From NCBI GenBank assembly GCA_016932045.1, contig JAFGDO010000011.1, positions 5,997-69,996 on the forward strand: 64,000 nucleotides of DNA. The letters run 5' to 3'. Source of the DNA: Candidatus Dojkabacteria bacterium. Its GTDB lineage: Bacteria > Patescibacteriota > Dojkabacteria > JAHIVN01. Positions 16,778 through 46,731 of this stretch are shown in pieces. Position numbers and translations under genes: made by a program. Every line of letters begins with the position of its first letter. Within the stretch, counting starts at the first letter, position 1. Under the pieces are notes generated by a model that had not been told where the DNA came from, did no database searches, and worked only from the letters and a program-made list of their open reading frames with translations.

Positions 16778-17748
16778 ATGTTAATTTTTTCTTATATATC
16801 AGAACACTATCTAAATCCTGTGCTCCGGTTTAATTTGTTCAATATGTTAAATAAATTACTGCTTTATATTTGTCTAATTTATTCACCTGAAAGTCTTGGA
16901 TCATGAAGGCTTGAGTAACAGAGTAGGGGAGCAGGGCAAGAAAAATCCGAGACCAACGATTATTATAGGATAAAATACTATAAGATACACAATATTTTTC
17001 GAATTAGGAGGTTAAAAGAATAAGAAGTTCTAGAAGCAAGGAAGATCCAGATGTTCAAGGTATAACTTGCCCCATTATATTCAGCTGTACTATTTCACAA
17101 GAATGTTTCACAATGGATGATACGATTGTGGATAACTGTGTGGTACTAACGAGGGTGGGTTGTAGGTGACTGTGTAAAACTATTGTGATCAACTATAGAT
17201 AAGCACAAGTCGGTAGTTGGAAATAAAGGGGGAAGAAAATAAGGTTGTGTTCTAATTCGTGCATCTACTCCTCTAGTATAAAATAGGTGCCTAAAGTTAC
17301 AAAGTATATGGTGCGTATAATCACCCTTATATGCAGTAACATAGAGTAGAAACGTGGGGTATACATAATTTTGGAAATTTTTACGGCAAATCAATTTGTG
17401 TCATTTCATTATTTTTAAATTTATAGGATATTTTTTATGTTAATCCTTCTCTAATATTTATATGTGTTTCCAGTATACTTTAGTTTAGTTATACCAGGAA
17501 TTGGGCCAATACCCATTTGATGGTTAACGAGTTTTTCGTTCAAGAGAGGGTATTTTGAGAAATTTTAGTGATAAGATTTGTTTCAGCTTGAAAAAGGCAC
17601 TCCCCCATCGACTACCAGTTCACTCTCTCGCCTTTTTTTGGTAAGCTTATACTATGGATATGTATTTACAATAGTTAATAACCAGAGTAGTCAAACCAAA
17701 TAGATTGAAAAGTGCTGTATCTCAAGCCTAAATTAATAAATAGTATAA

Positions 17749-19045: not shown

Positions 19046-19498
19046 TTATCCTATCTCTTCTATCCTATAGTGGATTTTGCCCTTAGGAGTTTCGACTCTT
19101 ATCTCCTCCCCTACTCTTTTGCCTTGGACAGCTTTCCCAACGGGAGAATTTATAGAGATTTGCCTCTCTTCTTGGGAATATATCTCTTCCACAAGCCGAA
19201 AGCGAACCTCTGTTTTGCTATTTTTGATAAGTATATTATTTCCAGGTTGCGCTTTGTTACCTATTATTGTTTCACCAGTATTTTTGTGATTTTCCGCAAG
19301 CTTTCTTTGTAGTCTTTCCATATATTTTTCGATAACACGTCTTTCCTCGACAAGTTGTTGATAGTCAAGAGCGCCTGATTCACTTGAGTAGTTTCCCCGC
19401 TCATCTTCTAATTGTTTGGTGAGCTGATTATATTTCTCTCTGATGTTGGAAAGTTTTAATTCTAAATCCTTTATTCTTTTATCTGCAGTCTTACTCAT
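19046..19498 (-). CDS. greA: Transcription elongation factor GreA-family protein
   Basis: An N-terminal coiled coil is followed by the C-terminal FKBP-like domain INSPVGKAVQGKRVGEEIRVETPKGKIHYRIEEI. Confidence 0.85.
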   Translation of the reverse strand: MSKTADKRIKDLELKLSNIREKYNQLTKQLEDERGNYSSESGALDYQQLVEERRVIEKYMERLQRKLAENHKNTGETIIGNKAQPGNNILIKNSKTEVRFRLVEEIYSQEERQISINSPVGKAVQGKRVGEEIRVETPKGKIHYRIEEIG

Positions 19499-19679
19499 TT
19501 CAAATACTCCATGTTTATAGAAATTTATAAACTCCTTTTCCTAAACGCAATAGCAAAACAAATATTACAATCTTATATAAACTATATATTTCAAAGGAAT
19601 TGTGTAAGTTTGTATTAAACTCCTAAGCGGATAAATTATAAAAGAGTGTTTTGATATTCTTTTTCTGTTATTTAGAGCA

Positions 19680-20141
19680 TTACATGTATCTTATTTCTTC
19701 GATTCTGTATGGTACCTGTCCTCTTGGTGATTCTACAAGAATTTCCTCACCTAAGCTTCTACCCATGGCAGCTTTACCAATAGGAGAAAGGTTTGACACA
19801 AGTCCATCTGTAGGTCTTGCATCGCAAGCTGATACAATGCAAACTTCTAGGTCATGAGAGTGATTCTTAAGCTTGATGCAGCAGCCTACTTCTACTTTTT
19901 CGAGCGCTTTATCTTTATTTTGTCCCATTCTTTGTTGCAGTTGTATTCTTCTCTTTGTAATTGCTATCTGTTTCGAGATAAATTCTCGTTCAGTCTGTAA
20001 AAAGTACAGACTTTCATTTTCATCTGAGGTCACAAGATCTCTCTCTCGTGAGATTTGTTCAGTAAGTTCCTGATATTTTTCGGCAAGACAGGCTAGGCGT
20101 TCTTCTAAATCTTTTATTTGTAAACATTTTTGAGTATTCAT
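19680..20141 (-). CDS. Second GreA/Gfh-family paralog. Start chosen at the internal ATG MNTQKC; the open frame extends to 20336.
   Basis: The coiled coil IKDLEERLACLAEKYQELTEQ has the tip SDENESLY. The C-terminal domain is LSPIGKAAMGRSLGEEILVESPRGQVPYRIEEI. Confidence 0.65.
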   Translation of the reverse strand: MNTQKCLQIKDLEERLACLAEKYQELTEQISRERDLVTSDENESLYFLQTEREFISKQIAITKRRIQLQQRMGQNKDKALEKVEVGCCIKLKNHSHDLEVCIVSACDARPTDGLVSNLSPIGKAAMGRSLGEEILVESPRGQVPYRIEEIRYM

Positions 20142-20316
20142 ACTAGAAATATAATAAATTAATTCTGAACCCAGTATGAATTTATCAAAGAGAGGAAGCT
20201 GATGCTTGATTTTTATATACTTTATTTCTGACAGGTTGGAAATTCTATATTTAAGAAATGTGCTATTTTGCTGGGGTTTAACGACCTGACGGGAATGTGT
20301 GGTTTCTGACAGAATA

Positions 20317-23283
20317 TTAGGCCTCCTTAATAGCAAATAATCTATTTACCAGTTCTTTTCCCCATGCTTGTGGTGATTGGAAATACTCAAGGGGTTCTCC
20401 TCCTGCATCATCGCTTGCTCTGATCAACATTTCTCTTGATACAATCCCTCTTCTTACTTGAATTTCTATGTGTTCTTCTATTATCCCTTCAACCAATCTG
20501 CCTGCTCTTGCTCCGATTCGAATGAAGCGTACTAGTTCTCCTTCTGTAAGTGGGAGGCTGTATGTTACTGTGGATAAAGCAACTACCATCGCAATGGTTC
20601 TTAGGTCTTTAGCACCACCTAGTTGTCCTGAAATACTTCGAATCTCTTGTAATATTGGCGTTCCTTTCATTAGGTTAGCCTTGATATGGGTTATGTCTCT
20701 TGGCATTATTAGGTCTACTTGTTCTGGAAGCCGATCCAGTTCTTCAACGGTTGTTGGAATTGCAACTTGTGCTTCTACTATGCTATCAAATATTCCATGA
20801 AGCTTTAGTAAATTAATAATTTGTATTCTTGTTTCAAGGGATTGATCGGCTTTGAGTCTCATTGATAGTGTATCTGTAAAAGTTTCCAAGTTTTCAACTC
20901 TTGGTTTTCTCCCTTCAACTCGAGCTAAACCATGATTTTGCGATATGTGCATCGGAGAGTGACCAGATGCGTAAGCAAGGTAGGTTGAGGCGACTATTCG
21001 TGAAAGAGATCTTATTTGTTCAACTTGGGAGGCAGAAAAGGATAGATTTGTACCATGTCTACAAACACTTATGAGTGAGTCAAGTCCCGTTACAGCTGAG
21101 AGTTCAATTACAAAGGTATCTTCAGTATCAAGAAGTTCGGTACGACGAACCTCGGAATCGTCTCTATCTAGTGATTTTGCCGAAGGTCTAAATGCAAAAT
21201 CAACTATATGTGAATGAAAGTCACTTCCAGTTAGTAATCTATTGCCTGCCTTATTATATATTGATCCTCTGATCAGATTTATAACTATGTGCTGAAGCGG
21301 AGGATAAAAACCAATCCCGAAATCATGAGTAAGTCTCTCTAAAGATAAGGCAAAAGCATCCAGTACAGTTTCCCCTTTGATGAACTTAAGTATATTGGGG
21401 TCTGGTCCTATATCAACAACATCTTGTGATTCACCACCTATTGTTACAGCCACAATTAAATTTCCTCTTTCTAGAAGATGGGCTCTTTGTCGAGGCCCCA
21501 AATCATGATAGGCGCAAATGGCACCAATGGAGTCTTGTCTTGGTGATAATTCTAGTCCTAAACCGTATTTTAAGCCCCAATTATATTTGCCATGTTCGTG
21601 GCTGACTATTCTTCTTACAGGGTCGCTAACCATTACTTTTATTTCAAATAAAGCATCAACAGTAAATCCATCGTGTGGAGTTACATGGGGAATACCTGCT
21701 ACAAAATGTACAGCTTCATATCTTGTATCATCTCGCTTGGTTTCAGATGCTTTTAGATACTCATCATTTTGCCTAAAAACCACTAGTCCTAATTGCCTTG
21801 ATAAGAATTCGGCTGTTGGAGTTGCTACCTGCTCTAGAGTGTACCCTTCTTCAAGATCGACATATAAGGTTATACCTGATCCATCTAGTGAGTATCCTTC
21901 AAGGTAACGCTCAAGAAGTTCATCTAATGACGCTTTTCCATTTGCATTTATAGCAGCTCTTCTAATCAATTCTTGGAATTCTGTTAGGGTGATTGGCCTT
22001 CGAGCATCAAAGCCTTCACCTAGGTTTCTATCAGAATTGGCTTTTAGGTATTCATTTAATTCTGCTTTTATTCTTGCATCATATGGACCGACACTTGCTA
22101 CTCCGGGGATTTTAGCTGCTGCATAAAGATCTCTCAATCTAATTGCAGTTCCGTGAAGGAGAATTCTGGCTCTTTGATCTGTGCAGGTCGGTGGGTATCC
22201 ATAAATTCTATAAGCTATACCATTCTGACGCATTTCCATAATGTCTCGGTATGCTCTCCTATCATATGTAAAGAGAGCAAGGGATGTTACCCTATGTTGC
22301 AAGGAGTTCCATTTATGGTATATATCACAAAGTCTATTCCACCAGTATATAGCCCTTTTTGATTCATCATATGCCTCAACAAGGATACGATCATCTTGAG
22401 ATGAAAACTCCTCAAGTGAAATTTTTCCCCACCGAATCATATAGACAACTGTTTCAAGTTGTTTAGGATTTATCCCTCTTGCCATCTCCATAGTTGCAAT
22501 TGAGTCTATTAGTAGTGCTGCCCAAGAAGTGGAATCATTTCCTAAGGCATTAAGACAACGATTGCACTCATGCTGATTGATAACATATGGCTTATGTTGA
22601 CTATATGGATGACGCATATCTAAATCATGTTTTCTTTGTAGCTGTTCAAATCTGGTGGTTTTTTCACCTGAAGATTCATTAATGCCGGAACTATACATTT
22701 TTTGTCGTGTTTCCAAAGCTTCTTGGACATGGATTGATATATGAGAATAGGCAGGAAGTTGTTTGAAAAATGCTGTATTTACAATTACTTGTTGGTCATA
22801 ATCAATAAATGAAGCTCGTATTCCGGAAAGGATCATTGCTGCTATCATGGTTTCTGCTCCTCCTACAAATCCATGCCAAGCTGTTCCATGCATTCCTTTT
22901 CCAGGCAAATCTGTCGGCTCAAGCGGATACGTTTCAAGAAAGATCCTGATAGCCCAAAGCATCTTTAGTTGAACATTTTCCTCTTGTATACTTTCTCCTG
23001 TTGACTCTTTAATGAACGATGGCAGTGTTGTGTATATTGAATGAATCGTATTAACCACTTCTGTTCCAAATACAGTTTCTATCCTTGCAGTGATTGAGTC
23101 TAAAGTGGTTTCCAGGGGTTCAAATGTTGTATGGGGATATTCTCTTTGTACTAATTCCAAAGCTTCTTGGTATGTAAGGAGTAATGGGTGTGATCTTTCA
23201 TATGTTTCACCCTCTAAGACTGCTGATTGTCCTGCTGATTGTTCCGTATTACCTGCTGCAGCAATAAGTTCTCTTAGTTCCAT
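20317..23283 (-). CDS. Large hypothetical protein (988 aa), no family recognised
   Basis: 2.97-kb uninterrupted ORF. GC appears somewhat higher than in the housekeeping genes, from two hand-counted ~64-124-nt samples. No P-loop or other familiar catalytic motifs were seen by eye. Confidence 0.6.
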   Translation of the reverse strand: MELRELIAAAGNTEQSAGQSAVLEGETYERSHPLLLTYQEALELVQREYPHTTFEPLETTLDSITARIETVFGTEVVNTIHSIYTTLPSFIKESTGESIQEENVQLKMLWAIRIFLETYPLEPTDLPGKGMHGTAWHGFVGGAETMIAAMILSGIRASFIDYDQQVIVNTAFFKQLPAYSHISIHVQEALETRQKMYSSGINESSGEKTTRFEQLQRKHDLDMRHPYSQHKPYVINQHECNRCLNALGNDSTSWAALLIDSIATMEMARGINPKQLETVVYMIRWGKISLEEFSSQDDRILVEAYDESKRAIYWWNRLCDIYHKWNSLQHRVTSLALFTYDRRAYRDIMEMRQNGIAYRIYGYPPTCTDQRARILLHGTAIRLRDLYAAAKIPGVASVGPYDARIKAELNEYLKANSDRNLGEGFDARRPITLTEFQELIRRAAINANGKASLDELLERYLEGYSLDGSGITLYVDLEEGYTLEQVATPTAEFLSRQLGLVVFRQNDEYLKASETKRDDTRYEAVHFVAGIPHVTPHDGFTVDALFEIKVMVSDPVRRIVSHEHGKYNWGLKYGLGLELSPRQDSIGAICAYHDLGPRQRAHLLERGNLIVAVTIGGESQDVVDIGPDPNILKFIKGETVLDAFALSLERLTHDFGIGFYPPLQHIVINLIRGSIYNKAGNRLLTGSDFHSHIVDFAFRPSAKSLDRDDSEVRRTELLDTEDTFVIELSAVTGLDSLISVCRHGTNLSFSASQVEQIRSLSRIVASTYLAYASGHSPMHISQNHGLARVEGRKPRVENLETFTDTLSMRLKADQSLETRIQIINLLKLHGIFDSIVEAQVAIPTTVEELDRLPEQVDLIMPRDITHIKANLMKGTPILQEIRSISGQLGGAKDLRTIAMVVALSTVTYSLPLTEGELVRFIRIGARAGRLVEGIIEEHIEIQVRRGIVSREMLIRASDDAGGEPLEYFQSPQAWGKELVNRLFAIKEA

Positions 23284-23440
23284 GATCTAAATAGGCTACC
23301 ATATGGCAGCCTATAGAAAATTTAGTAAAAATTGATAACCAGAAGAGATTATATCAAAATATTCTCTTTCGTGCATTGTTATAGGACTAATTTCAAAAAG
23401 TACACATTTTGATTTTGTCTTTTTGGGAATGTTTGAGAAT

Positions 23441-24820
23441 TTAACTGATAAGCCTCAGTCCCCTGCCCTTTATTGTTTCAATAAACCTAGGAGTAGAAGC
23501 TTTGTCCCCAAGCTTTTTTCGGATTCTGGACAATGTTCTGTCAATTGCCCAATCTGAGTATTTCTCAATTGAATTCTGACCCCATAGTATCTCTGCTAGC
23601 GCCTCTCGTGTTACTATCTTTCCCTTGTTCTTGTACAAAAGTTGCAGGATTTTATATTCATTTGTTGTGGGCTCTCTTTTTAGTGGCTTAGCATCAACAT
23701 AAACCGTTTTAGTTTTAGGGTCGATATAAAGTCCTTTTGTTACCGGAATCTCAACAGTTGATTTTTTGCCTGTTTTTGATTTGAGATAAATTTCTAAAAG
23801 TGGAGAAAAAAGTTTTTTTTCGCCATTTTCTTCTTTGATGACGCCGGTATTTTCAAGATATTTTGCTCGGTGATTGATAGGAGTATTAGGATTCTGTACA
23901 AATTCGATCAGAAAATCCTTGTATTCATCAAGTAGCTTTGTCCAAAATTTTTCGCTCCTCGCTAGTGTTGTACTATGAGAAGCTAGTTTTCTTATATCTT
24001 TCTTGTCCAGAATGGAGGCATCTTTGCCACTATCAAAATAAATTCTACTTAAAGCTCTCATATACCCTGGATGTCCTCCTGATATCTCAAATATACTTTG
24101 CTTAATCTTCGAGGTAAACTTAATACCTCTCTCTCTTTCCCATTCCTCAAGACCAAGAAAAGCATCTTCCTTACTTATTGGTTTTAACCAGAATTGTTTA
24201 TTGAGGAAAAGGTCATACAGTTCATCTAGAATTTCAGGTGTTAAGCTTGTAAGTAGATCACGATCGCTACTAAATGCTAATGTGACCTGCCATTTATTTA
24301 TATTTCTAAGTGCCTTTAGTGAATTAAAAAATTGTTTGTCAAAATCAGCAAGAGTGCCGAAATCATCAATAAGGATGCACAGATTAAAGTTTGCTTCTTG
24401 TGTTATGGTCTTTATGATATCCTCAATAGCACTAAAAATTACAAAAAGATCCTGGCCGTTTACAGCATTATCATGAATTTCTTTTATTTGGCTTTGAATC
24501 TTTTCATCCTTGATATTTGCTGCCACAGTCTTTTGGATTCTTGTTAGAAGCAGTCTGTAAAAACCAAGTGGGGAAATATCAAGAAGCTTTGTGAGATCTA
24601 GAAAAACTACGATAAAGTCAATTTTCTCTTTTGGGAATAATTCCTGCCAAAATTCTATATTCTTATCAAATGTCTGAAAAAGATCAGTTTTCCCTATTCC
24701 GGGCATTCCCATAAGTGTAAATGACTCACCTTGCTTGATCTGAGCTAGAATTGCTTTGAGAAGGTCTTTTTTGTATCCCTTTTTAAATCGGACGAAGTTT
24801 TTCTCGTTATGTCCTGACAA
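23441..24820 (-). CDS. P-loop NTPase (AAA_16/STAND-like) fused to a C-terminal OmpR/PhoB-type winged-helix DNA-binding domain
   Basis: Walker A is LMGMPGIGKTDLFQ and Walker B-like is LCILIDDFG. The C-terminus YKILQLLYKNKGKIVTREALAEILWG...IDRTLSRIRKKLGD...IETIKGRGLRL matches the trans_reg_C fold. Confidence 0.7.
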   Translation of the reverse strand: MSGHNEKNFVRFKKGYKKDLLKAILAQIKQGESFTLMGMPGIGKTDLFQTFDKNIEFWQELFPKEKIDFIVVFLDLTKLLDISPLGFYRLLLTRIQKTVAANIKDEKIQSQIKEIHDNAVNGQDLFVIFSAIEDIIKTITQEANFNLCILIDDFGTLADFDKQFFNSLKALRNINKWQVTLAFSSDRDLLTSLTPEILDELYDLFLNKQFWLKPISKEDAFLGLEEWERERGIKFTSKIKQSIFEISGGHPGYMRALSRIYFDSGKDASILDKKDIRKLASHSTTLARSEKFWTKLLDEYKDFLIEFVQNPNTPINHRAKYLENTGVIKEENGEKKLFSPLLEIYLKSKTGKKSTVEIPVTKGLYIDPKTKTVYVDAKPLKREPTTNEYKILQLLYKNKGKIVTREALAEILWGQNSIEKYSDWAIDRTLSRIRKKLGDKASTPRFIETIKGRGLRLIS

Positions 24821-24940
24821 TCCTGATCTCTTAAGAATTTATTAATTTGACAAGATTATATACCCCTGTCAGGATTACTGTCAAGTAAATGTCAGGGGAA
24901 TGGTCAGGTTAGAATTTGTGCTATAGTTATTATATAAATT

Positions 24941-25720
24941 TTATATCTGCTCAATTTTCCTCTTCAAATTTTTTAAGGTTTCTGTTAAATCCTTTGTTTT
25001 TTTTATTAATCCAAATTCCTCGCAAAGCTCAAGTGATTCTTTGAGTTTTAGCTTTTTTAGCTGTTTCTGATTCCTAGATTTAAGGTCATTTAAGCTGCTA
25101 TCTTGAGAAATAGTGCCATTTAATAAGCCTCTTATCACCCCATATATTCCAATTGTCTGCAGTTTATCTGCATCATATAGGATCTTAGCTCCGAGCCGGA
25201 TTATTTTTCTGGAGTAAGGACCAATTTTAGTTATTCTTTTGAAACCTAATTTGTAACCGGTTGAATCGTGGCAACTTATAATTTTTTTCACTGCTTGAGC
25301 GAAATAACGTTCTGCTCCCCAATTATCTAATTTTTTATAGGCTAAAACTGAACACTGATAGCTGTGCTCGTCTTTTTTCCTATAGGAAGGGTATTTTCTT
25401 GATGCACAATCATGCAAAAGAGAGGAAGCAAAGATTAGGACTTTTAATTTGTTTTGTTCTTCTTTTAAAATTTTTCTTCTGTTTAGTATTTTACCCAAGA
25501 GAGAAAAAGATGTGTTGTGAGCCAAGTATAGATGATTTTTATTGTGAGTTATGTCAAGAACTTTTGAATAGCTTTCGGCATATGTGGTAATATTCTGTTT
25601 CAGTTGGTTTGGAAGCGAAAGAATTACTTTCCTTGACCTGATATTGACAGCGCGTAGAAAATTTTTAGCTTCTTGTTTTGATATCACGGGAGTAGAATTA
25701 AATAATAGTAATGGCAGCAA
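24941..25720 (-). CDS. HD-domain phosphohydrolase-family protein
   Basis: The His/Asp motifs are [19 protein letters not shown] and ILYDADKL. The gene overlaps the 3' end of gyrA. Confidence 0.55.
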
Positions 25721-28316
25721 TTTCGTCTCCTTTATGCAAGCTCATGAGCCTGACGCCTGATGTTTGTCTGCTTCTTTTAGGTAGTTCTTTAGTCGGAATT
25801 TTAACTACCTGGCCTTCCTTACTCATGATAAGGAGCTCACTATCGGGGTGATCAAGAATTCTGGCAGCTGACAAGTTACCGGTTTTTTTAGAAAGGCGAG
25901 CTGTAAAAACTCCCTGCCCTCCCCTACCCTGTTTTGGATACTCTTTTATCTTGGTTGCTTTTCCAAGTCCTCTTTCCGAAACAATAAGCATAAGATCTTC
26001 ATTCTTTCGAATGATATCCATGGATATTACTTCGTCCCCTTTATCTTTGAATTTAATTCCGATAACTCCCATAGTAGCTCTTCCGGTAGGTCGGACATCT
26101 TTTTCTGAGAATCGGATACTCCTTCCGTGTCTTGTGACAAGTATGACTTCATTCTCACCTGTTGTTGGTTTTACCCATATCAGTTCATCATGCTCTGCAA
26201 GTTTTATGGCAATCAGTCCATTGGCTCGGATCTTTTCAAATTCTGAAATTTCTGTTTTTTTCACAATTCCAGTTTGTGTTGCCATGAATAGGAACTTATA
26301 AATTTTACCGCCTTTCTCCTGTTTAACTTGTCCCTCTTGAATCACATCCTCCTCCATAATTCCTTCTTTTGATCTTGTAAGAATGCTTGTGATAAGTTCA
26401 TCTTGATCAATGTTTATAAGGTTTATGATAGCTTGTCCTTTTGCTGTTCTTCCAAATTCAGGAATATCATAAACTTTTATCTGAAATACGCGGCCTTTAT
26501 TTGTGAAAAATAATATATCATCATGCGTATTGCAGCTAAAAACATGAGCAACTGCATCTGTTTCTTTGGTTGTCATGCCGACTTTTCCTTTTCCTCCTCG
26601 TCTCTGAATTTTATAGGTGCCTTCTTTTATCCTTTTAATGTAGCCTTGTTCGCTTACTGTAACAATAACTTCTTCGGCTGCAACAAGATCTTCGTCTGAG
26701 AATTCGTCAGCTCTGCCTTTGTATACTTTTGTCCTCCGTTCATCACCGTATTTTTTCCTTATCTCTTTTAACTCCCCCGTGATAATGTCCAAGACTTTCT
26801 CTGGGGTTTTCAGTATTAATAATAGCTCTTTAATTAAACTCTTTATTTCTTTATATTCCTGTTCAATCTTCTGTCTTTCAAGAGCAGCAAGCCTTCTAAG
26901 CTGCATGTCCAAAATCGCCTGTGCTTGGATCTCGGTCAGTTTAAACTTTTTCATTAAATTTATCTTTGCTACATCAGCATCCTTTGATCTGCGTATAGTG
27001 TTGATAACATCATCAAGGTTAGCAAGGGCGATCATTAACCCTTCAAGGATGTGCTCTCGTTCACGCGCTGTTGCAAGATCAAATTCACTTCTCCGAATGA
27101 CTATCTCTTGTCTGTGTTTGATAAATAATTCTAGAATTCTCTTTAGATTCAATACTCTAGGTTCACCATCTACCAAAGCAAGCATATTGGCGTTAAATGC
27201 CTTCTGCATCTCGGTAAATTTATAAAGCTTATTGAGAATGGTTTTAGGCTTTCCTTCGCGCTTGATGTCAACGACAATGCGAATACCGTCCTTGTTTGAT
27301 TCATCACGGAGGTCTCCGATTCCTTCAATTTTTTTATTCTTTACAAGATCGGCTATTTTAGAGACAAGACGGGCTTTATTCACCTGAAAGGGTATCTCGG
27401 AAATGATAATCTGATACTTTCCTCCATTTGTTTCGTGAATTCCTGCTCTTGCTCTCATAAGGATTCTTCCTCGTCCAGTTGCATATGCATTTGCAATTTC
27501 AGCTGCATCATAGATAGCTGCTCCTGTTGGAAAATCAGGCCCGGGGATAAATTCCATCAACTTGTCAACTGCTACTTCTGTTTCAAAATTTGGGAATCTA
27601 TCATCTGGAAGATCCTTAAGATCTTCACGCGTTTTTATATTATTGAAATAGTCTTTGTTTAAGTTGTCTTCACCATTTGACTCCCATTTATTGCCACTTT
27701 TTATAAGATAGCATAGTGCATCGGCGACCTCTCCAAGGTTGTGAGTCGGGATCTTAGTTGCCATTCCGACCGCGATGCCGTCTGCTCCATTTATTAGCAG
27801 ATTTGGAATAGCTGAAGGTAAAACTTTCGGTTCACGGTAACTTCCGTCATATGTTGGTATAAAGTCAACAGTATTCTTTTCAAGCTCACGAAGCATCTCC
27901 ATGGAAATTTTGGCAAGCCTTGCTTCTGTGTATCGCATTGCAGCTGCACCGTCACCATCAATAGAACCAAAGTTACCTTGACCATCAATGAGCATATATC
28001 TCATTGAAAAGTCTTGAGCCATACGAACAAATGCATCATAGACCGAAATGTCGCCATGCGGATGATATTTACCAATAACATCTCCTACTGTTCTTGCCGA
28101 TTTTCTGTAGGACCTGTTCGGAAGAATGCCTAACTTAAACATGGAGTAAAGAATTCTTCTTTGAACGGGTTTGAGTCCATCTTTCACGTCTGGAAGTGCG
28201 CGTGCAACTATGACACTCATTGCATAGTTGATATAACTTGACCGCATTTCAGAAGAAATGCTCGTTGACACAATATTCCCTTCTTCGCTGTTTATTTTCT
28301 TTTGTTTGGCAGCCAT
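25698..28316 (-). CDS. gyrA: DNA gyrase subunit A
   Basis: The N-terminus [27 protein letters not shown] is present. The catalytic Tyr region [10 protein letters not shown] is present. C-terminal beta-pinwheel repeats are present. Confidence 0.95.
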
Positions 28317-28356: not shown

Positions 28357-28521
28357 TTATTTTATTTCCTTTTGTTCCTCCAAACTATAACTTTGCCTTT
28401 TCTTCCTATTTCCTTCGCTGTATTTTGTGATTAAATAATATATGCCCAAAACCACAATAATTGCGGATACACTGACTGTTGCAATTATTGTTAATCCCCA
28501 GAATAATGCTTCTATGTCCAT
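28357..28521 (-). CDS. Small single-TM protein (54 aa) not in the ORF track, translationally coupled to the AIM24-family gene
   Basis: Manual translation gives MDIEALFWGLTIIATVSVSAIIVVLGIYYLITKYSEGNRKKRQSYSLEEQKEIK. The ATG overlaps the upstream stop as TAATG. Confidence 0.35.
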   Translation of the reverse strand: MDIEALFWGLTIIATVSVSAIIVVLGIYYLITKYSEGNRKKRQSYSLEEQKEIK

Positions 28522-29369
28522 TACCGATTCGCTAACATATCAAAAAATATACTAGCAAAAATGCATCCAAAGAATAAAAGCGAAATAACACATCCAAGAA
28601 TTTGTCTTGAAGCAAATGATTGGGTTGCATTTTGCTGATAATAATTTCTTCCTGCCAGTCCAAATTTTCTTGTTTGTAGCCATACTTTTCCGGGACCTCG
28701 AAGAACTCCTAGGAAAAATCCTTCACCTCCAAACAACCAATTAAATGGTCCTTTGACACTTTGTATATCAAAATCTACCGTATCTTCATATGCAACAAGA
28801 TTTCCCTGATCAACAGCGATTTCCTGGCCATCTTTAAGTTCATACATGACTGCTTCCCCATCGGCAACAAGATGTACTTTCCCCGCTCCTTCTACTTTTT
28901 GCAAGATAAATCCTTTTCCCCCAAAAAGTCCTGCACTGATCCTCTTTGTAAATGCTATTTTTCTTTCAATTCCCTCTTCACTACAAAGGTAGGCTCCCTT
29001 TTGAAAAATGATTCCAGGAGAATTCGTGTTGAGTTGCAGCGGGATAATTTTTCCGGCTTGATCGGTTGTAAAAGTAACTATTCCTGTCCCGCTTGTACAC
29101 GTAAACTTATTTACGAAAATTGATTCTTGAGTAAAAAGACGTGAGATCATCCTTGAGCATCCTTGTCCGTGTGTTGACATTTCAACATTGTTTGTCATCC
29201 AGCTCATCTTGCCTGCCTCACTGTAGATGTGTTCATTCTCATCAAGTTGAACACTTAATGCCTGGAGAGTTGTTCCAATGGTTCTATATGTGATACCTTT
29301 ACTACCTACTTCACCCTTTTCTACAAATTCTTTTTTTGTGACTTTTGTTACCTGATTTTGGTTTGCCAT
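28521..29369 (-). CDS. AIM24/TIGR00266 (DUF124) family protein with a C-terminal TM helix
   Basis: The family core is ...SAGLFGGKGFILQKVEGAGKVHLVADGEAV...GPFNWLFGGEGFFLGVLRGPGKVWLQT. Confidence 0.7.
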   Translation of the reverse strand: MANQNQVTKVTKKEFVEKGEVGSKGITYRTIGTTLQALSVQLDENEHIYSEAGKMSWMTNNVEMSTHGQGCSRMISRLFTQESIFVNKFTCTSGTGIVTFTTDQAGKIIPLQLNTNSPGIIFQKGAYLCSEEGIERKIAFTKRISAGLFGGKGFILQKVEGAGKVHLVADGEAVMYELKDGQEIAVDQGNLVAYEDTVDFDIQSVKGPFNWLFGGEGFFLGVLRGPGKVWLQTRKFGLAGRNYYQQNATQSFASRQILGCVISLLFFGCIFASIFFDMLANR

Positions 29370-43448: not shown

Positions 43449-43826
43449 TTGAAGAAAGTAACTTTGGTGCTAAAAATCATAGCAGTTGTTTTTTTTGTAT
43501 TGAATCTATTTGTGGGTATAGTTATGATTCTCAATGTTGCAAACATGAAGAATAAGTCGTTTTTTTATCTACACAAGTTGAGTAGTGATGGTGGATTGGA
43601 TGAACCAAAGGTGAATCAGTTAATTGAGGATTGTAACTATGCAGATGAAGTGCTTGTATGTAATACGAATAATGATTTTATGATTTGGGGGAGGTATGAA
43701 TATGGTTTGGGGAAATTATCAGCGGGGACTTGTGAAGTTCTTGGGCTTGATAAAAATGGTTTGTCTTACTGTGCAAGAGGCGAAAATTATTTATGGATTC
43801 AGCCCGTTACTTATGAGGAACGTTAG
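43449..43826 (+). CDS. Hypothetical membrane-anchored protein
   Basis: 125-aa ORF with an N-terminal TM and a conserved Cys pair. Confidence 0.4.
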   Translation: MKKVTLVLKIIAVVFFVLNLFVGIVMILNVANMKNKSFFYLHKLSSDGGLDEPKVNQLIEDCNYADEVLVCNTNNDFMIWGRYEYGLGKLSAGTCEVLGLDKNGLSYCARGENYLWIQPVTYEER

Positions 43827-46731
43827 TTGTACTACAAGGAAGATTTTATATTGTTTGACTAGTACTTTTTTGGTGCTGATGTTTTGTGTTTTATTGTTCA
43901 GGGCTAGTGAAGTAAATGCTGTTTGCGGTGATTGTGGGTCATGCGGTCACCAATGCGGCTCAAGTTGCAGCGGCTGTGCATTGTGTTGCGCTTGCGGTGG
44001 AAATCCTTCTTGTGGTACTGGCAGCTACCCTTACTGTTGTAAGGACTGCAATAAAGGTGGGCATACAGATTGCTGCTGTGGAGGTTGTTTTCCTCCTGAA
44101 ACAAAAGTTACCATGGCGGATGGTTCTTTTAAGAATATCGAGGATATGAATGAGGGAGATGAGATCCTTACTTATAATGATGATATAGGAAAGAATGTTG
44201 CTGGAGAAGTACTCCAGGTTAAAACTTTTTCGAGAAATGGATATTATGTAGTGAATGACAATTTGCTAAAAGTTAGCGACAGTCATCCTATATATGCAAG
44301 GAAGTGGTATGGGCGGGAAACGTGGGCAGCTATAAATAAGTTTCAGGGGATTGTTGACTCAGGGTTAACGGAGCTGTCTTCACTTGAGGTTGGTGACAGC
44401 ATTTTGAATCAGGAGGGCGAATGGATACAAATAACATCTTTAGAATATTTTGCTGGAGGACTTGAAACATACACTTTAGTTTCCGACAATGGAACATTTT
44501 ACGCTGAGGGTTTTTTAGTTCATAATAAAGGATGTAGTTGTCAGACACCCAACGGAGTATCTTTAGTTTCTCCTGCAAATGGTACAGTTGAAATTGCATC
44601 GACTAGTGTTACATTGGACTGGACAGACACTTCTGATTGGAAAAAATGTTGTGATGACTGCAGTAAACATTACGAAGTTAGATTGAAGACAACTGGTGAT
44701 TGGTATGAACCAGGCGATTGTACTAATCCAACTTCTTCGACTTGTACTGTATCAGGTTTAAGCTGGTGTACAACCTATCAGTGGCAGGTAAAAGCAGATA
44801 ATGGGTGCAAATCATCAAGTTATACAGGGGTGTGGACATTTAAAACGAACTGTCTTCCGGAAGTTATTTCAGTAACGCCATCAGGGAATTGGTCTGGGAC
44901 AGAAACTGATACGGATAATGCCTCGGGATGTAGTGATAATAATCCTCAGACTTTCCAGATTGAATATAGAGATCAAGATGGGCATGATGATCTGTACTCA
45001 CTGGGGATATGGATAGATGACCAGGCTCCGCATGTGATGCAGATGCACAGCTCAATGCATGGAATGGCATCAAGAAGAGAGGGAGATTGGAGGATGTTTG
45101 GTTGGAGCTGCGATACAAGCAGACATGACACATGCGGGAGTTTACTAGATTGTGATTGTTATCTGAATTGGGATCTTGATGTGCCTTATTATGGTGTTGT
45201 TATTCCAGAGTCAACATACTCAATTTGTTCACCGAAAACTATTACAAATAGATCTGATGAATCACCATGGGATTTTTATGCCTTGTGTGATCCTCAATAT
45301 GCTCCACCAGTGAATTGGACAATATCAAATCTTCAGGGTTTTCCAGCTTCAAATACTAAGCTGGTTGACTGGAAGGTATGGTTTTATGGGGATATTGGAA
45401 CAAACTTAGATATCTATGCTGTAGCTATTGATGAACATGGGGCAAGATCAGGCAACTGGCAGGACATAGGAGACTGGAAGTTGGATCTGGACCTGCCTTT
45501 GGCAGACCCAGCACCACAGCCAAATTCGGCTTCACAAATGAGGGTTGACTGGGCAGTAAGTGAGGCAAAAAGCGGTATAAGAACAATAGACAGAGATTGC
45601 AGGAGTGATTTAGGAAGTAGTGATATTCCTGATTGTGGATGTGCAACAGGATTATGTACAACGTGTGAGAATCCTGCTGATCCACAGACATGTTATAGGG
45701 GGAGGAATACGAATTGGAAGAAAGCAGATGGAACTGATGACGGGGTGGATGACGTGGTAATGCCGGGAGGGACAAGCTGGACACATACGAACTACGATAC
45801 GATAACAGACATATCAAGTATAGAAGACGTACAATACAAGCTGACAGTGTCAGATAATGCATGTAATCAAAATAGGGTCGTAGATGAACAGGAATTGGGC
45901 AAAAGATGGATAAGGACAGATTATGGAGATACATATGCAAGTGGAGGATATAGTCTGCAGATACCGGATTTGATAGCTGAGGATAAAAGAGACAACCTTT
46001 CAAGATTCATATGCTCATCAGGGGTAGCAGTGAATGCATTTAGTCCTGGGGGAGCAAGTGTATATAATTATAGACTTTTTAGTTATGCAGATGAGAATAA
46101 GAATAAGACGTTTTATGATTATCTTGAAGAGATAGTAAGAGAGAATGATGATCATGAAAGCTGGAACATGGGAAGCTTCAGTACACCAGCACAGTGGGAT
46201 GGGATACAAAGCGCAGGGACAGACGGAGTGTATGAATGGACAGCAGGGACAGATTTAAACCTTTCAGGGAAGAATTGTACTGCAAAGACATTAGTATTTG
46301 TTCCATCTGGGCAGCTTATTATAACGCCGAATTTCGGGGTAACTGATGTAAGTGTAGCTGGGAGTGATAATGGATGTGTATTTGTAGTAAGGGACAATAT
46401 AGTGATACAAGCAGGAGGAGTAGGAACAGGATCATATTCCTCACCATATTATCCAGACACTGTACCATATGATTCGGTATATGGATTCTTCATCACAGAT
46501 GGGAATGTGATAATAGATGCTGATACAAACTATGACCAGCTCTTGATAAAGGGAGGGGTGATAAGCAGGGGGGGGACATTTGGAAGGGACTTACTCCTGC
46601 TAGATAATCTAATATTTGCAGCAGAGAGGATAGAGTATGATGCAAGGTATCTGGACATATTGAAACCGTACATAGGAAGTAATTACACGTATAAAGTAAG
46701 AGAATACAAATATTCTGAACCTACCTACTAA
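43813..46731 (+). CDS. Large secreted protein with a bacterial intein-like (BIL/Hint) autoprocessing domain. Start chosen at MRNVSC; the ORF-track start is 43696.
   Basis: The signal peptide is MRNVSCTTRKILYCLTSTFLVLMFCVLLFRASEVNA. It is followed by a ~55-aa Cys/Gly/Ser-rich segment, then the Hint module CFPPETKVTMADGSF...LKVSDSHPIYA...TFYAEGFLVHN at nt 44086-44526. FN3-like and large C-terminal domains follow. Confidence 0.7.
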   Translation: MRNVSCTTRKILYCLTSTFLVLMFCVLLFRASEVNAVCGDCGSCGHQCGSSCSGCALCCACGGNPSCGTGSYPYCCKDCNKGGHTDCCCGGCFPPETKVTMADGSFKNIEDMNEGDEILTYNDDIGKNVAGEVLQVKTFSRNGYYVVNDNLLKVSDSHPIYARKWYGRETWAAINKFQGIVDSGLTELSSLEVGDSILNQEGEWIQITSLEYFAGGLETYTLVSDNGTFYAEGFLVHNKGCSCQTPNGVSLVSPANGTVEIASTSVTLDWTDTSDWKKCCDDCSKHYEVRLKTTGDWYEPGDCTNPTSSTCTVSGLSWCTTYQWQVKADNGCKSSSYTGVWTFKTNCLPEVISVTPSGNWSGTETDTDNASGCSDNNPQTFQIEYRDQDGHDDLYSLGIWIDDQAPHVMQMHSSMHGMASRREGDWRMFGWSCDTSRHDTCGSLLDCDCYLNWDLDVPYYGVVIPESTYSICSPKTITNRSDESPWDFYALCDPQYAPPVNWTISNLQGFPASNTKLVDWKVWFYGDIGTNLDIYAVAIDEHGARSGNWQDIGDWKLDLDLPLADPAPQPNSASQMRVDWAVSEAKSGIRTIDRDCRSDLGSSDIPDCGCATGLCTTCENPADPQTCYRGRNTNWKKADGTDDGVDDVVMPGGTSWTHTNYDTITDISSIEDVQYKLTVSDNACNQNRVVDEQELGKRWIRTDYGDTYASGGYSLQIPDLIAEDKRDNLSRFICSSGVAVNAFSPGGASVYNYRLFSYADENKNKTFYDYLEEIVRENDDHESWNMGSFSTPAQWDGIQSAGTDGVYEWTAGTDLNLSGKNCTAKTLVFVPSGQLIITPNFGVTDVSVAGSDNGCVFVVRDNIVIQAGGVGTGSYSSPYYPDTVPYDSVYGFFITDGNVIIDADTNYDQLLIKGGVISRGGTFGRDLLLLDNLIFAAERIEYDARYLDILKPYIGSNYTYKVREYKYSEPTY

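Follow-up and report, generated by a model that had tools for sequence, protein, structure and literature searches.

We analyzed a 64,000-nucleotide stretch of a Candidatus Dojkabacteria genome (contig JAFGDO010000011.1), referred to here as the window, with a focus on a block of three genes beside gyrA. According to the list of open reading frames (ORFs) of the window, three minus-strand ORFs follow one another between gyrA (25698..28316), which flanks the block, and a GreA-type gene. These are the gene of a 988-amino-acid (aa) protein (20317..23283, minus strand), named hypothetical protein JW766_02755, Candidatus Dojkabacteria, at NCBI; a 459-aa regulator gene (23441..24820, minus strand); and an HD gene called as a 259-aa ORF (24941..25720, minus strand). 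The original prediction, made by reading the sequence, had described just such a succession between greA and gyrA. Pfam confirmed both of its smaller assignments: the HD-domain protein has a weak match to PF01966 (E 0.006), and the protein described as a nucleoside triphosphatase (NTPase) fused to a winged helix-turn-helix (wHTH) matches AAA_22/AAA_16 (E ~1e-4) and Trans_reg_C (E 1e-16). Its statements on the 988-aa protein also held, as the gene is the second-largest ORF of the window, behind a 1011-aa ORF at 43696..46731, and the protein carries no signature recognizable by Pfam, PADLOC, NCBIfam, or PDB sequences.

As a whole, the 988-aa protein had no match in Pfam, NCBIfam, or PADLOC, and searching four segments of it against Pfam at E ≤ 10 gave no match either, including to RelA_SpoT (PF04607). 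Comparing PDB sequences with the protein (phmmer) and with its family profile (hmmsearch) yielded nothing meaningful, and a word-indexed search of 5.8e9 proteins, performed with the protein and with the family alignment, returned only the self-match. When 1.84e9 cluster representatives were scanned exhaustively with HMMER, seven relatives emerged, of which three scored E 1e-63 to 1e-46 (27-29% identical, 960-981 aa) and four scored E 1e-5 to 1e-4 (743-1046 aa). The resulting 8-sequence family alignment is collinear from end to end and has very few invariant positions (R67, G73, P120, P123, R404, K406, K414, D467, Y509, Y522, H564, R600, and D642).

A lead came from reading the sequence: residues 515-575 resemble the synthetase core of RelA/SpoT, and R404-x-K406-x7-K414 resembles its ATP-binding helix. 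A single-sequence AlphaFold model of the protein was uninformative (predicted local distance difference test, pLDDT, 34). An AF2 model built from the 8-sequence alignment reached a predicted template modeling score (pTM) of 0.62, with residues 31-600 at pLDDT 70-95. Using Foldseek against the PDB, we found that all of the top 40 matches of this model were RelA/SpoT homologues (RSH). The best was full-length A. baumannii SpoT (7qpr, E 1.4e-5), accompanied by the N-terminal half of T. thermophilus Rel (6s2u, E 1.6e-5, 491 columns, TM 0.52 normalized to the target). Further matches were B. subtilis Rel (6yxa) and M. tuberculosis Rel (5xnx), then the small alarmone synthetases RelP/RelQ; CapRel (7ztb) was among the weaker ones (E 0.2). 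Since these are matches to long RSH proteins, both N-terminal domains, the HD fold and the synthetase domain (SYNTH), are present: the model contains an RSH-type nucleotidyltransferase fold with an N-terminal HD-fold domain ahead of it.

Profile comparison gave the same answer. We assembled a long-RSH reference alignment of 12 sequences, namely relA and spoT of E. coli together with ten diverse genes carried on plasmids or chromids, and compared the family with it using hhalign (P 9.3e-5 over 271 columns, query 275-639 against SpoT 136-414). With 10 family members, two of them added through synteny, the match improved (P 1.2e-6, probability 91%). Against the real score of 50.3, controls reached 17 (reversed RSH alignment), 19 (gyrA), and 13 (regulator), and thirty column-shuffles peaked at 24.0; pairings of the wrong domains gave P 0.03-0.84. 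When the family was compared with a single RelA or SpoT sequence the result was not significant, and the short matches fell in the same order as in the later comparison. The 988-aa protein thus almost certainly belongs, as a remote member, to the RelA/SpoT superfamily and has the long-RSH (RelA-like) architecture, and we call it the RSH-like protein below.

The architecture can be divided into four parts. Residues ~31-365 (22189..23193, minus strand) form an enlarged, all-helical HD-fold domain that lacks catalytic residues and is thus a pseudo-hydrolase, and residues ~366-600 (21484..22188, minus strand) form the SYNTH (pyrophosphokinase) domain. They are followed by a tentative TGS-like segment (residues ~601-655; 21319..21483, minus strand), with the invariant D642 in G-x-T-V-x-D, and by a helical C-terminal region (residues ~656-988; 20320..21318, minus strand) that has no conserved Cys and no ACT/RRM signal.

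Within SYNTH we found R404-x-K406-x7-K414, D467, Y509, Y522/H526, E547, and H564, each of which can be paired with a residue of E. coli SpoT. The stretch DARIKAELNEYLK (R404, K406, K414) pairs with SpoT GREKHLYSIYCKM (R236, K238, K246); SLDGSGITLYV (D467) with MDIYAFRVIV (D259); EY (Y509) with DY (Y294); RYEAVH (Y522, H526) with GYQSLH (Y303, H307); FEIKVM (E547) with VEVQIRT (E319); and HGKYNW (H564) with AAHWAYK (H338). Beyond SYNTH, GETVLDAF (D642) pairs with GATPVDFAY (residues 403-411) in the TGS domain of SpoT. K406, D467, H564, and D642 are present in all 12 members of the family, and the columns conserved in 11 of 12 include R404, K414, Y509, Y522, and E547, for which member P0003 has Asp. 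H526 is kept in 9 of 12, the His of YxxxH being missing in P0006 and L103 as well as in the most divergent member discussed below. The best-conserved residues of the family are therefore almost all those of the RSH synthetase active site plus the TGS-like Asp, at a background identity of 21-36%.

The remaining domains have fared differently. No column in residues 1-380 has His or Asp in at least 8 of the 12 members, which implies that the metal ligands of the hydrolase have been lost and that the HD-fold domain is in a RelA-like pseudo-HD state. For the TGS-like segment, the full-length hhalign match extends into the SpoT TGS domain and D642 is invariant in the 12 members; hhalign restricted to the domain gave P 0.28, and the model has pLDDT <50 there. 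Residues 651-910 are also modeled at pLDDT <50, with predicted helices, and mean pairwise identity is 0.13-0.17 at residues 681-920 and 0.23-0.27 at residues 921-988, such that the last ~70 residues are better conserved. The zinc-finger and ACT/RRM domains dock Rel and RelA on starved ribosomes. A very diverged zinc-finger domain (ZFD) or ACT/RRM domain could still be concealed in the low-confidence part of the model; canonical activation by starved ribosomes probably does not apply to the RSH-like protein.

To place the family in its genomic context, we compared loci from related genomes, labeled L001 and so on (L106 and L099 are one genome). The gene order holB-gyrB-AIM24-gyrA-(HD)-regulator-RSH-like-greA-greA-xerC(-)-270 aa(-)-ruvBAC matches in L094, L095, L096, L097/98, L099, and L100, and a search seeded with the regulator added L101/L102, L103 (a frameshifted long-read contig), L107, and L108. 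The partner of the regulator in L101/L102 is an 868-aa protein that belongs to the family (hhalign probability 93%, P 2.7e-7). In every contig with enough flank, a ~460-aa Trans_reg_C protein is encoded immediately upstream of the RSH-like gene; regulators that are merely 24-26% identical (L104, L109, L111, L112) have no RSH-like neighbor. The block, found in ~10 related metagenomic genomes, has thus been inherited vertically as a locus specific to their clade and is not an island. We surveyed genomes without the block by a gyrA-anchored scan of GTDB species representatives. In L001 (GyrA 70% identical), L003 (60%), and L012, which are the nearest genomes outside this group, gyrA lies convergent with, and almost next to, xerC or the ruv genes, and all of the 18.8-25.7 kb segment is absent, both GreA genes with it. 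As a separate observation, the gyrA/xerC junction is a site of variable cargo across candidate-phyla lineages: it holds a 175-aa ORF in L001 (11949-13145), unrelated 224- and 221-aa ORFs in L004 (6150-8535), and ~7.5 kb in L006 (7180-14700) that include a response regulator with an OmpR-type wHTH match and other ORFs.

Base composition of the block is ordinary for the window. The guanine-plus-cytosine (GC) content of the 988-aa gene is 39.2%, as compared to 39.3% for gyrA, and those of the 459-aa and 259-aa genes are 35.4% and 33.1%, where ORFs of the window span 33-44%. For the 988-aa gene, GC at third codon positions (GC3, 24.7%) and synonymous-codon divergence (0.065, against the remainder of the window) are both ordinary for its length, and a strong GC1>GC2>GC3 gradient indicates that the ORF is genuine, native coding sequence. 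The block contains no boundary formed by a tRNA, a repeat, or an integrase, and the XerC-like gene itself is conserved in relatives without the block. Several parts of the original prediction have to be revised in the light of these results. The higher GC it had estimated for the 988-aa gene is absent, and GC and codon usage mark the gene as native. What it had seen as an island interrupting a housekeeping neighborhood is a block that, together with both GreA paralogues, is co-located in ~10 related genomes; a reading as an accessory or acquired island finds no support given the native composition, the conserved synteny, and the lack of a PADLOC defense system. The two comparisons it had proposed, remote homology and synteny, found a member of the well-known RelA/SpoT superfamily by structure and profile, and a block that is conserved and syntenic in related genomes, which is essentially the outcome it had named as refuting it. 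Its notion of a lineage-specific enzyme survives in modified form, with the block absent from L001, L003, and L012. That of a signaling NTPase plus an effector does so too, as an NTP-binding wHTH protein that is always paired with the RSH-like protein makes "NTPase plus nucleotide-signaling enzyme" a fair description. For a defense-type module there is no PADLOC system, and a conflict role stays a minority reading because the large protein diverges so fast.

This divergence is the most unusual feature of the locus. Across the syntenic genomes, pairwise identity is 72-83% for GyrA, 47-83% for the regulator, and 21-36% for the RSH-like protein; between the window and L095, the respective values are 79%, 83%, and 28%. 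The divergence of the RSH-like protein runs over its full length (mean pairwise identity 0.13-0.31 per 40-residue window), and only the catalytic residues are pinned. It may come from diversifying selection or from weak constraint outside the active site.

The 459-aa regulator consists of an N-terminal P-loop NTPase, with the Walker A motif GMPGIGKT at residue 38 and the Walker B motif ILIDDF, and a C-terminal winged helix of the OmpR/PhoB type (PF00486, E 1.4e-16, above the Pfam cut-off). The winged helix matches the DNA-binding domains of PhoB, RstA, WalR, and ToxR in the PDB (PhoB/RstA/WalR at E ~1e-7) and is almost invariant among orthologues (KYSDWAIDRTxSRIRKK). No receiver domain was matched in the N-terminus by Pfam or NCBIfam; with a P-loop NTPase in place of the receiver, the protein is not a classical response regulator. 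It also has weak nSTAND6/NB-ARC/mad8 matches (PADLOC mad8, E 2.4e-4), and the other two proteins of the block have no PADLOC match. In the regulators of L096, L099, and L100, the Thr of Walker A is replaced by Asn (GKN), and in these and that of L097 the first Asp of Walker B is replaced by His (IHDF). Such Walker variants beside a nearly invariant wHTH suggest that the P-loop domain may be a nucleotide sensor that binds without hydrolysis.

Upstream of the regulator gene lies its promoter (24855..24908, minus strand), in which (C)CTGAC(A) is directly repeated four times with a spacing of 11-12 bp. The repeats overlap a perfect TTGACA -35 element and the spacer, and are followed by TATATAAT; the promoter itself, TTGACA-18-TATAAT at 24884..24855, matches the sigma-70 consensus at 12 of 12 positions. 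CTGACA repeats are conserved in all seven loci compared, and this is the sole cluster of at least three CTGAC within 60 nt in the 64-kb window. Direct repeats at such a spacing are the geometry expected of an OmpR/PhoB-type operator, and the 459-aa factor probably binds these repeats over its own promoter.

The spacer between the regulator and the RSH-like gene carries its own elements. Just upstream of the RSH-like start codon, we found a 24-nt near-palindrome, ATAGGCTGCCATATGGTAGCCTAT (23291..23314, minus strand). The window, L094, and L095 all have its pattern, ATAGRCTGCC...GGCAGYCTAT (24-26 nt), in which a G-C pair has become A-T by compensatory change in L094. Of the palindrome, L096, L099, and L100 keep the CTGCC half-site alone; a CTGCC motif a short way ahead of the start codon is common to all loci. 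This element could be either an RNA hairpin or a protein operator. An extended -10 element, TTTGATATAAT (23348-23358, minus strand), is common to the window and L095. In four loci the spacer measures only 56-73 nt, which makes co-transcription of the two genes likely there.

We next turn to the HD gene, whose product, aligned with two orthologues, likely starts at GTG 25687 and is then 248 aa long (24941..25687, minus strand) and does not overlap gyrA. The alignment shows that H59, H68, H103-D104, H151, and D183/D185 are kept, and the profile matches PDB 2pq7 (E 1e-3), then 3djb, 3b57, 5dqv (YpgQ), and 3gw7 (YedJ), all weakly (E 1e-3 to 1). In these metal-site residues, which follow an H...HD...H...D(xD) pattern, it is like the YpgQ/YedJ HD nucleotide pyrophosphohydrolases, from which it differs in that its matches are weak and in that several of the syntenic loci lack the gene. 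We also considered a small alarmone hydrolase of the RSH type and ruled it out, as HDxxED is missing and the best matches are YedJ/YpgQ-like. As an optional member of the block, the gene occurs in the window, L094, and L100 and is missing at the gyrA-adjacent position in L095, L099/L106, L101, L103, and L107, a count that leaves out L096 and L108, whose contigs end within gyrA. In L101, a 196-aa HD protein related to that of the window (hmmsearch E 1e-10) is encoded between ruvB and ruvA (19404-19994), and there the HD gene has apparently changed its place in the neighborhood. A role as nucleotide pyrophosphohydrolase partner of the RSH-like protein is plausible.

Directly downstream of the RSH-like gene lie two GreA-family paralogues: greA-a (153 aa; 19680..20141, minus strand; PF01272, E 6e-15) and greA-b (150 aa; 19046..19498, minus strand; PF01272, E 4.5e-14). 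The former most likely starts at ATG 20141, in which case it does not overlap the 988-aa gene, and is preceded by a conserved block, TGTCAGAAATAAAGTATATAAAAATCAAGCA (20203-20233), with two more GTCAG motifs. Orthologues of greA-a are in the same place in L095 (partial), L096, and L099. Orthologous a/a and b/b pairs in L096, L099, L103, and L106 point to an old tandem duplication; L101 and L107 have one GreA gene each. In L001 and L003 both paralogues are missing from the vicinity of gyrA, which makes them part of the clade-specific block and not of a housekeeping flank. Both paralogues have acidic residues at the coiled-coil tip.

Two further features of the neighborhood were conserved. An AIM24-family gene (282 aa, window 28521-29369) is conserved between gyrB and gyrA in the clade, followed by a 52-61-aa ORF in L094, L099, L100, L101, and L103. 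On the xerC side, an ORF-free gap of 750-980 nt between xerC and the gene of a 270-aa membrane protein (window 16778-17748) is kept in all syntenic loci, with equivalents at L096:8394-9137, L099:15413-16305, L101:16572-17550, and L103:16297-17133. The gap has short, strongly conserved patches of DNA (GGAGTAGGGGA, ACTATAAGATA..AACTATAGG, and GATACGATTTGTGGATAAGT) and an invariant TGCGTATAATnAyCCTTAT at 17312-17339, and Rfam gave no match to it even at E ≤ 1. It could be an undescribed non-coding RNA or a long regulated leader of xerC.

Setting the RSH-like protein against known systems, we find that it is closest to RelA (E. coli-type, monofunctional). Like RelA, it has an HD-fold domain without catalytic residues and then SYNTH, with R-x-K-x7-K, the catalytic Asp, the Y-x-x-x-H acceptor loop, the catalytic Glu, the following His, and, tentatively, a TGS-like element. 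Unlike RelA, it is ~250 residues longer, with an HD-like domain of ~330 aa as compared to ~190, an insert of 40 residues in SYNTH, K/R/H for the Gln of E-x-Q, and a helical C-terminus without a detectable ZFD or ACT/RRM domain. It is also unrecognized by the RSH models of Pfam and NCBIfam, evolves several-fold faster than its neighbors, and is encoded behind a dedicated P-loop/wHTH regulator gene. From the bifunctional Rel/SpoT enzymes (B. subtilis Rel 8acu/6yxa, A. baumannii SpoT 7qpr) the family differs in lacking the H, HD, and D residues and the ED motif of the hydrolase; as these are absent from the whole family, the RSH-like protein cannot be a bifunctional enzyme. The small alarmone synthetases (SAS) and toxSAS (RelP/RelQ, FaRel, CapRel) are different again, since the RSH-like protein is multidomain, shows no bicistronic toxin-antitoxin layout, and has a fixed chromosomal context. 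The family is an extremely diverged RelA/SpoT enzyme, not a new category of system. No canonical RelA/SpoT/Rel was found by tblastn in the window and all fetched loci, which cover a small part of each genome.

On balance, we favor with moderate confidence a synthetase-only long RSH of the RelA-like kind, with a pseudo-HD domain, an intact SYNTH domain, a TGS-like segment, and a novel helical C-terminus, that would make (p)ppGpp and is probably controlled by the adjacent wHTH regulator. Because the synthetase residues alone are strongly conserved, an active synthetase-only enzyme is the most likely state, and, going by the residues, the RSH-like protein is fairly likely to be an active pyrophosphokinase of this kind. 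In the proposed reaction, ATP would donate its beta,gamma-pyrophosphate to the 3'-OH of a purine nucleotide, for which GDP/GTP is the most probable candidate, to give (p)ppGpp; as the default product, (p)ppGpp itself has perhaps a little under an even chance. The P-loop, OmpR-type wHTH factor, encoded immediately upstream and co-inherited with the enzyme, would act on the repeats of its own promoter to set expression of the regulator-RSH transcription unit, possibly with greA. That this factor is the transcriptional controller of the RSH-like gene is about an even call. A separate hydrolase would have to remove the alarmone, for which the YpgQ/YedJ-like HD neighbor is a candidate where present. 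A functional link to the GreA paralogues may exist as well.

A number of observations weigh against such an enzyme. Detection by sequence fails completely and no curated model recognizes the protein, so that RSH membership stands at the level of remote homology; the assignment rests on a model from a shallow 8-sequence alignment and on profile-profile statistics. An identity of 21-36%, where GyrA is at 72-83%, is atypical of a housekeeping Rel. An insert of ~40 residues (417-460) separates the RxKx7K helix from the catalytic-Asp strand, the Gln of the RSH motif E-x-Q-x-R-T is replaced by K/R/H in the family, and the His of YxxxH is missing from L101 (868 aa), the member that has diverged most. 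The RSH C-terminal region gave hhalign P 0.52, with ZFD and ACT/RRM undetectable in a low-confidence part of the model. Finally, the acceptor substrate could be other than GDP/GTP.

We considered other explanations, given here in falling order of probability. The first, which we regard as unlikely, is a conflict or defense effector that arrests growth in the manner of toxSAS/CapRel, through (pp)pApp or pyrophosphorylation of the tRNA CCA end, with the variable N- and C-terminal regions as a fast-evolving sensor and the wHTH protein as controller. The extreme divergence of the RSH-like protein relative to GyrA and the regulator would suit this, as would catalytic residues fixed amid divergence, a pattern typical of arms-race proteins, the STAND-like character of the NTPase partner (the weak nSTAND6/NB-ARC/mad8 matches), the change of Gln to K/R/H in the catalytic strand, and the presence of CapRel among the weaker Foldseek matches. 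However, the gene holds a fixed, vertically inherited place beside gyrA in ~10 small genomes, has native composition, belongs to no PADLOC system, and has no small antitoxin-like ORF. Its architecture is moreover that of a long RSH (pseudo-HD, SYNTH, and TGS-like) and not of a single-domain SAS, and its divergence is not confined to one sensor domain.

Rather improbable is a self-contained, lineage-specific circuit of nucleotide signaling. Its enzyme, a rapidly diversifying RSH derivative in which new sensor domains stand where the ribosome-sensing C-terminus was, would make an alarmone that need not be (p)ppGpp; the adjacent P-loop/wHTH factor would read this alarmone directly and pass the output to transcription by way of the two GreA paralogues. 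In another form of this reading, the locus would be a conflict system of an episymbiont from the candidate phyla that answers phage or host cues. We think it still more doubtful that the protein is a pseudoenzyme or scaffold, an RSH fold without pyrophosphotransfer that binds nucleotides or proteins to regulate the wHTH factor or RNA polymerase/GreA. Its very fast evolution, the lost hydrolase site, the undetectable canonical regulatory C-terminal domains, and the deviations of some members at YxxxH (P0006, L101, L103) or E547 (P0003) are in keeping with this, but the near-invariant residues are the set that binds the ATP phosphates and Mg and stacks the acceptor, which a loss of catalysis would not keep. 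A horizontally acquired accessory island of unrelated genes in a housekeeping neighborhood is very improbable: the block is absent from L001, L003, and L012 and the gyrA/xerC junction carries different cargo in L004 and L006, yet GC, GC3, and codon usage are indistinguishable from those of the neighbors, no tRNA, repeat, or integrase bounds the block, the XerC-like gene is kept in relatives without it, and the same order in ~10 relatives with this degree of divergence fits long vertical descent.

The favored reading, a synthetase-only long RSH, bears on how alarmone synthesis is surveyed in these bacteria. The RSH census of Jimmy et al. distinguishes 13 long-RSH, 30 SAS, and 11 small alarmone hydrolase (SAH) subfamilies by hidden Markov models (HMMs) (PMC7229694), and genes for (p)ppGpp synthesis are reported to be general in Saccharibacteria (bioRxiv 10.1101/211649). 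We found no report of the present family among published work on RSH in candidate-phyla bacteria or Dojkabacteria. It is a long-RSH subfamily invisible to Pfam, NCBIfam, and HMM-based RSH censuses, and because of this such censuses would miss the RSH-like protein when scoring these Dojkabacteria for alarmone synthetases. A conserved hypothetical protein beside gyrA in an uncultivated clade thereby gains an annotation at the level of function. The family has kept the synthetase site and has replaced or lost the rest, from the residues of the hydrolase and the domains for ribosome sensing to most of its sequence; it is thereby a natural experiment that can show what a long RSH cannot do without. 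Its invariant pairing with a wHTH regulator, together with the two GreA paralogues, suggests an undescribed wiring of alarmone synthesis to transcription.

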